Origin: Mobula hypostoma
Taxonomy: Eukaryota
Assembly (NCBI RefSeq): GCF_963921235.1
Contig: NC_086097.1
Location: 168,022,001-168,086,000 of the forward strand
Direction: 5' to 3'
Length of the DNA stretch: 64,000 bases
The notes below the pieces were generated by a model. It did no database searches. It saw only the letters and a program-made list of their open reading frames with translations, and was not told where the DNA came from. This document shows positions 1-17,250 of the stretch, in pieces (within the stretch, counting starts at the first letter, position 1; each line of letters opens with the position of its first letter). The position numbers and the translations under genes were made by a program.

Positions 1-770
1 CCACACTGATTCAAAAGAGGATTCTGCTACATTACCCACACTTTCCATAGCTGTAATAGTATCCCTGACCAGTAATGCCACCCCTCCTCCCCTTTTTCCC
101 CCCGTTCTATCCCTTTTAAAGCACTGAAATCCAGGAATATTGAGAATCCATTCCTATCCTGGTGCCAGCCAAGTCTCTGTAATGGCCACTACATCATAAT
201 TCCATGTATATATCCAAGCTCTCAGTTCATCACCTTTGTTCCTGATGCTTTTTGCATTGAAGTACACACATTTCAGCCCTTCTACCTTACTGTCTTTACA
301 CTGTTTATTCTGCTTCTCTTTCCTCAAAGCCTCTCTGTATGTTAGATCTGGCTTTACTCCTTTCACTGCTCTATCGCTCTGGGTCCTATCCCCCTTGCAA
401 ATTAGTTTAAACCCTCCCAAACCATGCTAGCAAACCTACCTGCAAGGATATTGCTCCCCCTCGAGTTCAGGTGCAACCCATGCAATCTGTACAGGTCCCA
501 CTTTCCCCAGAAGAGGTCCCAATGATCCAAAAATCTAAAACCCTGCCCCCTGCACCAACTCCTCAGCCACGCATTCAACTGCCGTCTCCTCCAATTCTCA
601 CCATTACTATCATGTAGCACTGGCAGCAATCCCGAGAATGCCACCCTTGAGGTCCTGTTCTTCAGCCTTCTGCCTAGTTCCCGAAACTCACACTACAGGA
701 CCTCATCCCTCTTCCTGCCTATGTTCACTTCATTTTCCCATCTAAGCCACAGTCATCGAGCTGCAGCTTG
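1..770 (-). mobile_element. Second CR1 family fragment: internally deleted ORF1 esterase plus the start of ORF2 endonuclease, running off the window
   Basis: FLDHWDLFW..GLHLN in the ORF1 frame; YFNAKSIRNK, AITETWL in the ORF2 frame. Confidence 0.9.
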
Positions 771-9938: not shown

Positions 9939-12135
9939 CTGGAACCCACCCAAAGAAGTTTGTTAGTACCAACACATTAAAAACAGTTTTGAACAGACAT
10001 GTTGATCTGTGCACCACGTTCATGTCGAGGTAGTAAATCACTGACAGAAAGACGCAGCATAGAAACATGCTCGAGTCCACCAAGGTCCTGTTTTTACACT
10101 AATCCCACTCTCCTCCCCACATTCCCATCAGCTTTCTCCAGATTCTACCACTCACCTACACACTCGGGGCAATTTACCGTCACCAATTAACTTACCAACC
10201 TGCATCGTGTTTAGGACATGGGAGGAAACGAGATCACCCGGGGGAAAAGAACCAGCTCACAGGGAGAAGGTGCAAACTCCACACACAGGTGGCACAGGAG
10301 GGCAGGACTGAACCTGGGCCACTGCAGCTGCGGCTCAGTTGCACCACTAGGAGGGCCACTGCCTCTAGTTAGTAACACCAGTTGACAGAGGAAAGGGGTA
10401 TACAAGTGCCCTGGTATCTAGACTGGAAGGGAAGTGAATATTTACCAGGAAGCACCAGACTGGTTTCTGTATCATGAACAGTGCAGGCAAACAGCACACT
10501 GCAGCTGTTCGAGCTGCAGAAATTTGCCCTGATGGAATTCACAAATCATCTTCCAAGTACTTGAGGTGCAGAATAAAATTCACTCTCACAGAAAGTGAGG
10601 AGTAACAAAGCAGTTAAATAAAATTTATTTTTCAACTCGTATTCCTTGGTACATGTGCAAATGATGCAGCTTCACATTGCAGAAAATTGTGATACGGATC
10701 GTTTCCAGCAGCAAACCACACAGGTCACCTGTGGTTTCCAGTGCTAACTGACCATTACATGTAGGGATGAGGTTTGAGGAAGAAATGGTCCATTACCTTT
10801 GTTAGTTTTACACACAGATACAAGTGCAGTACAAAATTGTTAGGTCCATGCCAAAGACTGGCTTATTTGGTGTGAATGTCACCAATCATTTTGGGGACAG
10901 GTAGTGATCAGTTGGTGCCCCCTCGGTAATAATGAAATGTCACAGATCCCAAGCACCAGCAAACAACGCACAGGGCCGCAAGAGGCTACAGAGGGTTGCA
11001 GCTCCATCATGGGCACAACCTGCCCCACCATCCAGTGCATCCCCTTTTTCTGTTACTACCATTGGGGAGGAGGTACAGGAGCCCAAAGACCCACAATCAA
11101 CAGTTCAGACAGTTTCTTCCCTTCCGCCAGATTTATGAACTGTCCATGAACGTTATGCCTTGCATCATTTGCACTATTTATTTTTGTAATTTATAGTAAT
11201 TTTATGTCTTTGCACTATAATACTTCTGCTGCAAAAAAAACTTCATTTCATCAGTGGTAACAAATTTGACCCGATTTTTAAGAGCTTGAGCAGTCAAAAG
11301 AATTTAACAAAAGGAATTAGGTTGGATAATCTGATCCTCCACAAGATATCCAGGTACCCACACAACATTACTGCAACAATTCCATTACATTCCCAGAGAC
11401 CACACTGCTAAAATGAGGATTACAGCCATGGTTGCTGTTCAACTATTTCAGCAGCTATAATCAGAACCACCCATTATCTCGCTACAAAATCGCCACCCTT
11501 GAATTAGCCAAGCAGCTTTGGAAATGTGCTGATGTGCACCTATGCTCTCCACCCAGTTTGCTGGGTGACAAGAGTTCAACCGGCCTGTAACAGGCACCCG
11601 CTCAGAAGTTCATTTGTGGTGATCCTATGTATGCACCTTCTCAACTGCTACAATTCTTCATGCCTCCAGCTCTGGCATTCTGAAAACATTGGTGGTTACA
11701 CTGCCCAGGTTCTCTGTAATCCAATTCCAGCCTCAACTCTTCAATTTTATCCAACTCTTTCTCATCAAGAATCTGTACACCTCTCCCTTAAAAATATTCA
11801 AGGACTCGCTTCCTCAGTGAGAGGAAGAAAGTGAGTTACAAAGACCTGGTGAGAAAAAATAATTTCATCTCCTATCTGTTATAAATAGGCGAGGCCTTTA
11901 CCTTATTTTTAAATATTAACCCCTAGTTCTAGATATTCCTCTCCACATCCACAGTCAAGACCTGTGCACTTCAGTGATCAGGGCTGAAGGACAGGGCATT
12001 GAAGTGTGCAATAGAACAAAGAGACATGGGAATATACATAGAAACATAGAAACATAGAAAATAGGTGCAGGAGTAGGCCATTCGGCCCTTCGAGCCTGCA
12101 CCGCCATTTATTATGATCATGGCTGATCATCCAAC

Positions 12136-15100
12136 TCAGAACCCCGCCCCAGCCTTCCCTCCATAGCCCCTGACCCCTGTAGCCACAAGGGCCATATCTA
12201 ACTCCCTCTTAAATATAGCCAATGAACTGGCCTCAACTATTTCCTGTGGCAGAGAATTCCACAGATTCACCACTCTCTGTGTGAAGAAGTTTTTCCTAAT
12301 CTCGGTCCTAAAAGGCTTCCCCTCTATCCTCAAACTGTGGCCCCTCGTTCTGGACTTCCCCAACATCGGGAACAATCTTCCTGCATCTAGCCTGTCCAAT
12401 CCCTTTAGGATTTTATACGTTTCAATCAGATCCCCCCTCAATCTTCTAAATTCCAACGAGTACAAGCCCAGTTCATCCAGTCTTTCTTCATATGAAAGTC
12501 CTGCCATCCCAGGAATCAATCTGGTGAACCTTCTTTGTACTCTCTCTATGGCAAGGATGTCTTTCCTCAGATTAGGGGACCAAAACTGCACACAATACTC
12601 CAGGTGTGGTCTCACCAAGGCCTTATACAACTGCAGTAGTACCTCCCTGCTCCTGTACTCGAATCCTCTCGCTATAAATGCCAGCATACCATTCGCCTTT
12701 TTCACCGCCTGCTGTACCTGCATGCCCACTTTCAATGACTGGTGTATAATGACACCCAGGTCTCGTTGCACCTCCCCTTTTCCTAATCGGCCACCATTCA
12801 GATAATAATCTGTCTTCCTATTTTTGCCACCAAAGTGGATAACTTCACATTTATCCACATTAAATTGCATCTGCCATGAATTTGCCCACTCACCCAACCT
12901 ATCCAAGTCACCCTGCATCCTCCTCACAGCTAACACTGCCACCCAGCTTCGTGTCATCCGCAAACTTGGAGATGCTGCATTTAATTCCCTCATCCAAGTC
13001 ATTAATATATATTGTAAACAACTGGGGTCCCAGCACTGAGCCTTGCGGTACCCCACTAGTCACCGCCTGCCATTCTGAAAAGGTCCCGTTTATTCCCACT
13101 CTTTGCTTCCTGTCTGCTAACCAATTCTCCACCCACACCAATACCTTACCCCCAATACCGTGTGCTTTAAGTTTGCACACTAATCTCCTGTGTGGGACCT
13201 TGTCAAAAGCCTTTTGAAAATCCAAATATACCACATCCACTGGTTCTCCCCTATCCACTCTACTAGTTACATCCTCAAAAAATTCTATGAGATTCGTCAG
13301 ACATGATTTTCCTTTCACAAATCCATGCTGACTTTGTCCGATCATTTCACCGCTTTCCAAATGTGCTGTTATCACATCCTTGATAACTGACTCCAGCAGT
13401 TTCCCCACCACCGACGTAAGGCTAACCGGTCTATAATTCCCCGGTTTCTCTCTCCCTTTTTTAAAAAGTGGGGTTACATTAGCCACCCTCCAATCCTCAG
13501 GAACTAGTCCAGAATCTAACGAGTTTTGAAAAATTATCACTAATGCATCCACTATTTCTTGGGCTACTTCCTTAAGCACTCTAGGATGCAGACCATCTGG
13601 CCCTGGGGATTTATCTGCCTTCAATCCCTTCAATTTACCTAACACCACTTCCCTACTAACATGTATTTCACTCAGTTCCTCCATCTCACTGGACCCTCTG
13701 TCCCCTACTATTTCTGGAAGATTATTTATGTCCTCCTTAGTGAAGACAGAACCAAAGTAATTATTCAATTGGTCTGCCATGTCCTTGCTCCCCATAATCT
13801 ATTCACCTGTTTCTGTCTGCAGGGGAACTACATTTGTCTTTACCAGTCTTTTCCTTTTTACATATCTATAAAAGCTTTTACAGTCCGTTTTTATGTTCCT
13901 TGCCAGTTTTCTCTCATAATCTTTTTTCCCCTTCCTAATTAAGCCCTTTGTCCTCCTCTGCTGAACTCTGAATTTCTCCCAGATCTCAGGTGAGCCACTT
14001 TCTCTGGCTAATTTGTATGCTTCTTCTTTGGAATTGATACTATCCCTAATTTCTCTTGTCAGCCACGGGTGCACTACCTTCCTTGATTTATTCTTTTGCC
14101 AAACTGGGATGAACAATTGTTGTAGTTCATCCATGCAACCTGTAAATGCTTGCCATTGCATATCCACCGTCAATCCTTTAAGTGTCATTTGCCAGTCTAT
14201 CTTAGCTAATTCACGTCTCATACCTTCAAAGTTACCCCTCTTTAAGTTCAGAACCTTTGTTTCTGAATTAACTATGTCACTCTCCATCTTAATGAAGAAT
14301 TCCACCATATTATGGTCACTCTTACCCAAGGGGCCTCTCATGACAAGGTTGCTAATTAACCCTTCCTCATTGCTCAAAACCCAGTCCAGAATAGCCTGCT
14401 CTCTAGTTGGTTCCTCGACATGTTGGTTCAAAAAACCATCCCACATACATTCCAAGAAATCCTCTTCCTCAGCACCTTTACCAATTTGGTTCACCCAGTC
14501 TACATGTAGATTGAAGTCACCCATTATAACTGCTGTTCCTTTATTGCACACATTTCTAATTTCCTGTTTAATACCATCTCCGACCTCACTACTACTGTTA
14601 GGTGGCCTGTACACAACTGCCACCAGCGTCTTCTGCCCCTTAGTGTTACGCAGCTCTACCCATATCGATTCCGCATCTTCCCGGCTTATGTCCTTCCTTT
14701 CTATTGCGTTAATCTCTTCTTTAACCAGCAACGCCACCCCACCTCCCCTTCCTTCATGTCTATCCCTCCTGAATATTGAATATCCCTGAATGTTGAGCTC
14801 CCATCCCTGGTCACCCTGGAGCCATGTCTCTGTGATCCCAACTATATCATAATCATTAATAACAATCTGCACTTTCAATTCATCCACCTTATTACGAATG
14901 CTCCTTGCATTGACACACAAAGCCTTCAGGTGCTCTTTTACAACTCTCTTAGCCCTTATATAATTATGTTGAAAAGTGGCCCTTTTTAATGCTTGCCCTG
15001 GATTTGTTAGCCTGCCACTTTTACTTTTCTCCTTAGTACTTTTTGCTTCTACCCTCACTTTACACCCCTCTGCCTCTCTGCACTGGTTCCCATCCCCCTC

Positions 15101-15169
15101 TTGTGAACTAACCTCCTCACGCCTAGCCTCTTTAATTTGATTCCCAACCCCCAACCATTCTAGTTTAAA
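12136..15169 (-). pseudogene. CR1 ORF2 (APE endonuclease + reverse transcriptase) with one in-frame TAG (13799-13801) and one frameshift (about 12920)
   Basis: NARS, ITETWL, GDFN, SDH endonuclease motifs; [29 protein letters not shown] motifs. Confidence 0.93.
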
Positions 15170-16095
15170 GTCACCTCAGTAGCCCTCGCTGATCTCCCTG
15201 CCAGGATATTGGTCCCCCTAGGATTCAAGTGTAACCCATCCTTTTTGTACAGGTCACGCCTGCGCCAAAAGAGGTCCCGATGATCCAAAAACTTGAATCC
15301 CTGCCCCCTGCTCCAATCCCTCAGCCACGCATTTATCCTCCACCTCATCGCATTCCTCCTCTCACTGTCGCGTGGCACAGGCAGTAATCCCGAGATTACT
15401 ACCTTTGCGGTCCTTTTCCTCAACTCCCTTCCTAGCTCCCTATATTCTCCTTTCAGGACCTCATCCCTTTTCCTACCTATGTCATTGGTACCTATATGTA
15501 CCACAACCTCTGGCTCCTCACCCTCCCACTTCAGGATATCTTGGACACGATCAGAAATATCCCGGACCCTGGCACCAGGGAGGCAAACTACCATCCGGGT
15601 CTCTGGACTGCATCCACAGAATCGCCTATCTGACCCCCATACTATCGAGTCCCCTATCACAACTGCCCTCCTCTTCCTTGCCCTACCCTTCTGAGCTACA
15701 GGGCCAGACTCTGTGCCGGAGGCAAGGCCACTCTCGCTTCCCCTGGGTAAGCTGTCCCCCCCAACAGTACTCAAACAGGAGTACCTATTGTTAAGGGGCA
15801 CAGCCACCAGGGCACTCCCTATTACCTGACTCTTCCCCTTCCCCCTCCTAACCGTGACCCACTTGTCTGCCTCCCATGGCCCCGGTGTGACCACCTGCCT
15901 GCAACTCCTCTCTATCAACTCCTCACTCTCCCTGACCAGACGAAGGTCATCGAGCTGCAGCTCCAGTTCCGTAACGCTGTCCCTTAGGAGCTGCATCTCA
16001 ATGCACTTGGCGCAGATGTAGACGTCCGGGAGGCTTGGAGACTCCAGGGCCTCCCACATCCGACACTGAGAACAGCAAACTGCCCTCACACTCAT
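15160..16095 (-). CDS. CR1 ORF1 protein: Cys-rich finger, leucine zipper and SGNH/GDSL esterase; uninterrupted 311 aa
   Basis: CxxC...CxxC, heptad LELQLDDL, IGDSIV, HIGTND, DGLHLN motifs; ATG at 16095. Confidence 0.9.
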   Translation of the reverse strand: MSVRAVCCSQCRMWEALESPSLPDVYICAKCIEMQLLRDSVTELELQLDDLRLVRESEELIERSCRQVVTPGPWEADKWVTVRRGKGKSQVIGSALVAVPLNNRYSCLSTVGGDSLPRGSESGLASGTESGPVAQKGRARKRRAVVIGDSIVWGSDRRFCGCSPETRMVVCLPGARVRDISDRVQDILKWEGEEPEVVVHIGTNDIGRKRDEVLKGEYRELGRELRKRTAKVVISGLLPVPRDSERRNAMRWRINAWLRDWSRGQGFKFLDHRDLFWRRRDLYKKDGLHLNPRGTNILAGRSARATEVTLN

Positions 16096-16240: not shown

Positions 16241-17250
16241 CTCTATGATCCTTAATTCGTTGAGAGTGGCTTCACAGGCAGATAGAGTTGTAAAGAGAGT
16301 TTTTGGCAGATTGGCCTTCATAAATCAGGACATTATGGACAGGAGTTAGAACATAGTACAGGCCCTTCGGTCCACAATGTTGTGCCAACCCTTAAACCCT
16401 GCCTCCCATATAAGCCCCACCTTAAATTCCTCCATATACCTGTCTAGTAGTCTCTTAAATTTCACTAGTGTATCTGCCTCCACCACTGACTCAGGCAGTG
16501 CATTCCATTCACCAATCACTCTCTGAGTAAAAAACCTTCCTCTAATATCCCCCTTGAACTTCCCACCCCTTACCTTAAAGCCATGTCCTCTTGTATTGAC
16601 CAGAGTTTTATAGAGCTGCATCATTACCCTGCAACTCTTAAACTGTATCCCTCCACTTAGGAAAGCTAAAACCCCATAAGCTCTCTTAACTACCCTGGAT
16701 GTTACTTTGAAGTTATTTAAGACATTCGTGAGGCCAAATTTGAAGTATTGTGTGCAGTTCTGGTTACTTACCTACAGAAACACATCAATAAGCGAGAAAG
16801 AAGCAGAGAAATTTTACAAGGGGATTTACAGGACTTGAGGCCTGAGTTACAGAGATAGCTTGAGTAGGTTAGGACTTCATTCCCTGGAATGCAGGAGAAA
16901 ATAAGGGAAGATCTATAGAGTTATATAAAATTATGAGGTGTATAGACAGGATGTGGAGACTAGAACTACAGGTCATAGGTTTAGGGTAGAAAGGCGGAAT
17001 ATTTAAAGGAAATCTGAAGGGAGACTACTTCGCTTAGAGAGTAGTGTGAGTGTAGAATGAGCTGCCAGTGGAAGTAGTAGATGTAACAATTGTAACACTT
17101 AAGAGAAGTTCTGACAGGTAAATGAATGAGAGAGGAATGGACAGCAATGGTCTGGGTGCAGGTAGATGAGACTCAGCAGAAAATTAGGCTTGTATAGAAT
17201 AGATGGGCCAAAGAGCCTTCTTTTGTGTTGTAGTGCTCTATGACTTTATA
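16241..17250 (+). mobile_element. Older CR1 RT/3' fragment, interrupted at about 16347-16695 by a minus-strand CR1 3' piece
   Basis: Degenerate VRPNLKYCVQFW and 3' motifs; the nested piece encodes TRGHGFKVRGGKF...FFTQRVIGEWNALP. Confidence 0.75.

Follow-up and report, generated by a model that had tools for sequence, protein, structure and literature searches.

Comparative evidence for a candidate −1 frameshift signal at the ORF1-ORF2 junction of CR1 LINEs

How does a ribosome reach the second reading frame of a LINE when that frame lacks a start codon near its beginning? This question is raised by a CR1-type element in a 64,000-nucleotide stretch of the Mobula hypostoma genome (hereafter the window; NC_086097.1, positions 168,022,001 to 168,086,000). 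ORF2 translation in LINEs is an open question, and the two cases studied, L1 and SART1, use reinitiation. A first-pass annotation of the window proposed that this element makes an ORF1-ORF2 fusion in the style of retroviral gag-pol, by programmed −1 ribosomal frameshifting. The support that we find for this proposal is comparative, in that heptamer, phase, and missing AUG are conserved, and we consider it probable that frameshifting on U_UUA_AAC yields a CR1 ORF1-ORF2 fusion.

The element is nearly full length and lies on the minus strand, from about 16240 to 12037. Its ORF1 (15160..16095, minus strand) is open from stop to stop between 16185 and 15160, has its first ATG at 16095, and encodes an N-terminal CxxC..CxxC motif, a coiled-coil-like region, and a C-terminal SGNH/GDSL esterase (PF13472, E=1.7e-16) before terminating in ...EVTLN, that is, in L-N-stop. 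The protein matches the solved ORF1-encoded esterase of PDB entry 4C1B (E=1.6e-25), and its nearest named relatives are ray proteins, with 91% identity to a Mobula hypostoma protein. ORF2 begins with an APE-type endonuclease (14240..14929, minus strand; PF03372 and PF14529), deep within which lies the first in-frame ATG (14524), and continues with a reverse transcriptase and C-terminal part (12136..13798, minus strand; PF00078, E=2.2e-28); in the window copy a stop at 13801-13799 and a frame change near 12920 disrupt this frame. A 3′ UTR (12037..12135, minus strand) ends in tandem TTTCTATG repeats (about 12060-12037), and CR1-clade LINEs are known to end in short tandem repeats instead of poly(A). 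The element thus has an esterase ORF1, an APE endonuclease followed by a reverse transcriptase in ORF2, and 3′ TTTCTATG repeats, as CR1-clade LINEs do. Just upstream of its 5′ end, at about 16350-16720 on the minus strand, is a separate 3′ fragment of another CR1 (a C-terminal piece of a reverse transcriptase). NCBI lists a CR1 ORF1 protein 59% identical to that of the window element (P0022) as an SGNH hydrolase of Pseudomonas aeruginosa, probably because host DNA contaminates that assembly.

On the minus strand, positions 15169-15163 read TTTAAAC and 15162-15160 read TAG. ORF1 therefore closes with ACT TTA AAC TAG, so that the heptamer (15163..15169, minus strand) comprises the last base of a Thr codon and the Leu and Asn codons in X_XXY_YYZ phase; the UAG stop (15160..15162, minus strand) lies directly 3′ and is replaced in other lineages by UAA or, once, by UGA. 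Letters and frames agree with what the first-pass annotation had described here. The −1 frame is that of ORF2: it stays open between 15175 and 13799, reads FKLEWLG over the heptamer, and runs without a stop into the endonuclease, also as proposed. Counting codons from 15169, its first Met is number 216 (the ATG at 14524, in IMGDFN), close to the roughly 210 codons first estimated and inside the endonuclease. A UGA in the −1 frame (15176..15178, minus strand), 16 nt ahead of the stop of ORF1, leaves only the 13 nt preceding that stop as a place where ribosomes can enter the ORF2 frame. Heptamer and endonuclease are connected by a linker of about 77 codons (14930..15159, minus strand) that is rich in K, E, R, and G, poorly conserved, open in the −1 frame, and free of AUG. 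TTTAAAC by itself is common, with 24 matches on both strands of the window, five of them followed by a stop, and hence only conservation can carry a case for frameshifting; what exceeds chance at the junction is the heptamer's position, phase, and conservation. A second, divergent CR1 junction in the window (1..725, minus strand; ORF1 63% identical) has the heptamer at 411-405, a UAA stop, a G5 run after a 10-nt spacer, and the endonuclease in the −1 frame behind a Met-free linker.

A search of the window's own genome returned 2510 candidates, of which 40 were scored and 30 sister copies retrieved at 97–100% identity. The heptamer is unchanged in all 30, and within 100 codons of it (or before a stop) no copy has an in-frame Met, so that neither the in-frame AUG nor the heptamer changes in young copies that had been named as arguments against frameshifting are present here. 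In 29 of the 30, the first AUG after the ORF1 stop is out of frame (UAG AAUG) and opens an 8-codon dead-end ORF, which in the window copy lies at 15132..15158 (minus strand). The first-pass annotation mentioned neither this AUG nor the break in the window copy's ORF2. The endonuclease follows in the −1 frame in 29 of the 30 loci where it was located (sister copies and locus L118). These data indicate that the junction layout is a property of the window family and not damage to the window copy, and that the family is young and abundant (97–98% identical copies, 2510 candidates). At a divergence of about 1.5% per site, young copies cannot show selection.

Greater evolutionary distances were covered by 92 loci of the same genome, a set enlarged by searches with divergent ORF1 proteins and sorted by eye into eight lineages (F1–F8). 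The exact heptamer stands at the ORF1 end in 78 of these loci (F1 30/31, F2 11/21, F3 8/9, F4 3/3, F5 2/2, F6 1/1, F7 14/15, F8 9/10), and of the 84 loci where the endonuclease was located, 67 have it in the −1 frame; F2, an old lineage, has mixed endonuclease frames (7/6/4). A metagenome scan gave 26 loci, 11 of which reach the ORF1 end, five of those 11 from one assembly. Nine carry the exact heptamer: eight with a stop and one with a changed stop; of the other two, one is degraded and one has no junction. One metagenome locus (L051) is 99% identical to a protein (P0119) whose cluster includes a turkey entry. At locus L107, the ORF1 end and junction are tandemly duplicated within one copy. 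Searching viral_contigs with alignment A1 and protein P0114 found nothing. The check that the first-pass annotation had suggested, conservation and phase of TTTAAAC across CR1, thus came out in its favor, in that the heptamer is kept across lineages that are only 25–83% identical in ORF1 protein.

Conservation of a heptamer that encodes the end of a protein could reflect the protein. To separate nucleotide from amino acid constraint, we compared codons in 14 real copies with ORF1 esterases 25–83% identical, picked among copies with an intact heptamer. Of 33 conserved columns that allow synonymous change, only three use a single codon throughout, namely one Cys and the two codons that close ORF1, TTA and AAC. 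The terminal Leu is TTA and the terminal Asn is AAC in 14 of 14 copies, while elsewhere in the same stretches TTA accounts for 24 of 218 Leu codons (11%) and AAC for 22 of 71 Asn codons (31%). Moreover, the base before TTA is T in all 14 copies, under six different codons. Synonymous sites are not fully saturated (the CLPGA codons are alike in 11–14 of 14 copies), so the lineages are not independent draws; for these selected copies, the heptamer nonetheless appears to be conserved beyond protein constraint.

These counts bear on an alternative in which the slippery appearance is incidental: ORF2 would have an RNA of its own, separate or spliced, or conservation of the motif would have another reason, such as an L-N protein end combined with shared ancestry or a site acting at the DNA or RNA level. 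L310 and N311 are indeed invariant in alignment A1, whose members were chosen among L-N-ending proteins, and some other ORF1 codons are also well kept, but the protein does not demand a rare Leu codon, the rarer Asn codon, or a fixed wobble T under six codons. Splicing would lack a polypyrimidine tract ahead of the stop, and the AG within UAG varies, with UAA in F2, F3, F7, and F8. An RNA starting after ORF1 would, in the window family, still have no AUG before codon 216. We therefore regard this explanation as highly improbable. Among the joints listed (15 of 51) for contigs of four runs presumed to be RNA, one contig skips 14891-15138; the ends of the skipped segment are AT..TT on the plus strand and GT-AG on neither strand, so we rejected it as an intron, and it has no bearing on splicing or expression. 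The CR1 junction carries a real, deeply conserved nucleotide signal.

Protein databases extend this pattern. An L-N end was found in 69 of the 78 first-search proteins with a catalytic DxxH motif (120 examined) and in 122 of 251 homologous proteins over both searches, with named members from rays, sharks, coelacanth, frogs, turtles, squamates, and birds. The residue before L-N, which would need a U-ending codon, is an exception in 3 of 122 proteins versus 208 of 1220 in the background, but the depletion is similar at positions −6 and −7 (4 and 7 of 122). In a more distant group, 17 of 33 proteins end in Q-G-N (13), A-G-N (2), V-G-N, or K-G-N. Since Q, A, V, and K all have G-ending codons, these ends fit the heptamer G_GGA_AAC, which we infer for this group from protein ends only. 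No locus with the DNA of this group was found in viral_contigs, genome_contigs, or plasmids, the window's own genome gave only an L-N lineage, and no longer fused proteins of the group were found. The other 16 proteins have different ends; C-R-G, V-G-R, V-S-R, F-F-R, or similar in place of G-N occur in P0338, P0339, P0347, P0348, P0350, P0351, P0354, P0357, and P0358, which may use other shift sites or another mechanism. A frame-fused copy from another distant cluster (P0277) reads F-K-L at the junction point.

We next consider what lies 3′ of the stop, where frameshifting has to be weighed against termination followed by reinitiation, that is, a restart in the −1 frame near the ORF1 stop at an AUG or else a near-cognate codon, with heptamer and G tract serving as a reinitiation signal and ORF2p made as a separate protein. 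In 14 representative copies, all selected from intact ones, stop and endonuclease are separated by 92–305 nt, a distance that is always 2 mod 3, and the intervening sequence is open in the −1 frame in all 14, with stops in frame 0 in 13 of 14 and in frame +1 in 14 of 14. A linker open only or mainly in the −1 frame requires that translation enter at or near the ORF1 stop, which fits reinitiation as well. A Met precedes the endonuclease in 9 of the 14 copies and is absent in 5; the description of ORF2 as AUG-less hence stands for the window family and lineages F4–F6 and does not extend to CR1s in general. An in-frame AUG overlaps the ORF1 stop or follows it within 2 nt in 5 of 14 copies. UAAUG, an overlap that also yields the −1 phase, occurs in the ORF2 frame of lineage F7 (11 of 12 in-frame copies) and of L075. 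In three bird-like copies, an in-frame AUG begins 2 nt past the stop, and AUG, UUG, or GUG is found at that position in bird-like copies, F3–F5, and L054. SART1 is reported to use UAAUG, and L1 to start ORF2 independently of its AUG (PMC2881922, PMC3708506, PMC5009743), so that a missing AUG is no proof of frameshifting.

The candidate start, however, varies in both place and identity, and F6 and F2 offer only AAG/AGG or a later GUG. In the window family the UAAUG overlap is absent, and the first AUG after the stop, in UAG AAUG, is out of frame. Reinitiation also gives no reason for an invariant, in-phase X_XXY_YYZ heptamer, nor for a group ending in G-N. That candidate starts shift between lineages while the heptamer stays constant favors frameshifting, and we judge reinitiation to be unlikely. 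The two routes may coexist in F7-like and bird-like elements; the lineages L092-L106 and L075 combine the slippery heptamer with a SART1-like UAAUG in the ORF2 frame, making a dual route of expression possible.

The origin of the window family bears on the same choice. DNA downstream from 15099 is 92% identical to F7, whereas ORF1 is only 71% identical, and at the join (15086..15099, minus strand), which contains a second G5-AT-GGG tract from F7, the window family is 54 nt (18 codons) longer than F7 with the frame kept. The family is thus a recombinant in which an ORF1 like that of L118 meets an ORF2 like that of F7, with the join at a G tract belonging to F7 itself. The second in-frame ATG of F7, present in 14 of 15 donor copies, is GTG in all 26 matched window-family copies (four were unmatched). 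By this comparison, the chimera lacks both in-frame AUGs of its ORF2 donor, yet has kept heptamer, G tract, and frame and has been amplified. G tracts, as the join site of a recombinant, may also be template-switch points.

If ribosomes shift at the heptamer, what stimulates them? Stimulators of −1 frameshifting are typically a stem-loop or pseudoknot 5–9 nt downstream of the heptamer. Folding without pseudoknots revealed no stable local structure behind the CR1 heptamer (z of 0.11 for the window and −0.99 to +1.56 for 13 copies), and no conserved quadruplex was found on the G tract, one being predicted in only 2 of the 13; we therefore do not favor a local stem or conserved quadruplex as the stimulator. 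What is conserved is a G5-N(1-3)-GGG tract (15143..15152, minus strand), a candidate stimulator that starts 10 nt after the heptamer. The first-pass annotation had placed a G-rich tract after a 5-nt spacer, which is where G-rich sequence begins; the part that is conserved, the G5 run at 15152-15148, has a 10-nt spacer. Outside F2, 62 of 71 own-genome loci have at least four G in a row from the 8th base after the stop, as do 6 of 8 metagenome loci; among F2 junctions, 11 of 19 have such a run from the 7th base.

As a tentative lead, the C-rich CLPGA codons, which lie about 430 nt upstream, were among the top four windows for pairing with the G tract in 9 of 13 copies, in an unshuffled ranking; no compensatory change was seen among the 13. 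The CLPGARV codons themselves (about 15590-15565, minus strand) are unusually fixed (TGC 14/14; CTC, CCT, GCC, and GTC 11/14), also in L008-L110 and L051-L058, and this C-rich stretch is a possible pairing partner for the junction G tract, or may fold locally into a small hairpin. The G tract is more likely a protein-binding site or the arm of a long-range pairing than part of a local pseudoknot. Because its spacing equals that of the PRRSV stimulatory motif, 11 nt 3′ of the shift site, a protein-bound stimulator is our preferred guess, by analogy.

In the frameshifting mechanism that we favor, most ribosomes would end at the UAG and release ORF1p. The stop codon, together with the G5-N-GGG tract at the mRNA entry channel, would cause pausing, and a minority of ribosomes would move one base backward, their Leu and Asn tRNAs re-pairing on UUU AAA. 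These would then pass through the flexible linker and complete an esterase-linker-endonuclease-reverse transcriptase fusion. By tandem-slippage logic, the transframe peptide should read L-N (or L-K) followed by LEWLG, and not F-K before LEWLG as first predicted. As no protease domain was found among the Pfam matches of the window element, the fusion would stay whole unless cleaved by the host. A broader version, which we offer tentatively and hold to be doubtful as a whole, is that vertebrate CR1 LINEs use protein-activated −1 frameshifting, in which ORF1p, or else a host protein that binds G runs, recognizes G5-N-GGG at its PRRSV-like spacing and thereby sets the fusion yield, and in which the signal has persisted since jawed vertebrates arose, with a change to G_GGA_AAC among distant relatives.

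If frameshifting is indeed used, it would constitute a third, gag-pol-style route to ORF2 in one of the most abundant families of vertebrate elements. An active reverse transcriptase would be tethered to a membrane-binding esterase ORF1p, and the ratio of ORF1p to ORF2p would be fixed. It would explain the frequent absence of a CR1 ORF2 start codon and alter the design of CR1 retrotransposition assays and annotations. The junction forms a natural cassette of 30 nt with an unstructured candidate stimulator and can be tested directly in a reporter.

The mechanism itself is known; the family is one for which we found no description of it, and the candidate stimulator, unstructured and G-rich, is unusual. 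No proposal of CR1 frameshifting was found in the literature searched; an overlap or frameshift may already be mentioned beyond that scope, in the first accounts of CR1 from chicken and turtle or by Kapitonov and Jurka 2003. "CR1" occurs 0 times in the first 300,000 of the 449,034 characters of PMC5009743. The CR1-clade element ZfL2-1 (PDB 4C1B) resembles the window element in having an esterase ORF1 and an endonuclease-reverse transcriptase ORF2, and the word "frameshift" is absent from its esterase study (PMC3905857).

Among other retroelements, Dictyostelium TRE5-A and TRE3-A are said, in the passage cited, to need a −1 frameshift for ORF2 (PMC5911963). Like CR1, they are two-ORF APE-type non-LTR elements; unlike CR1, they are amoebozoan, target tRNA genes, and have another ORF1, and the cited passage names no slippery site and no experiment. 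An optional frameshift with a pseudoknot is described for Penelope-like elements in PMC8557442. SART1 and L1 share with CR1 a bicistronic mRNA and, according to the studies cited above, a dependence of ORF2 translation on ORF1, by UAAUG coupling and AUG-independent initiation, respectively. They differ in making a separate ORF2p, whereas the window family has neither UAAUG nor an in-frame AUG and its frames overlap on the heptamer.

The closest parallels to the CR1 proposal are viral. Retroviral and LTR-element gag-pol and coronavirus 1a/1b combine, as proposed for CR1, a shift-prone heptamer with an abundant structural protein and a rare polymerase fusion, but there a stem-loop or pseudoknot lies 5–9 nt downstream, and none was found behind the CR1 heptamer. 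For mammalian ribosomes, the review PMC5009743 counts both U_UUA_AAC and G_GGA_AAC among the heptamers most prone to shifting. The same review describes the PRRSV nsp2 frameshift, which is stimulated by a short unstructured CCCANCUCC motif 11 nt 3′ of the shift site that is bound by nsp1beta/PCBP. The CR1 motif differs in being G-rich, and both its binding by a protein and its stimulation are hypothetical; its placement resembles that of the PRRSV motif, the G run of CR1 starting with the 11th nt behind the heptamer.
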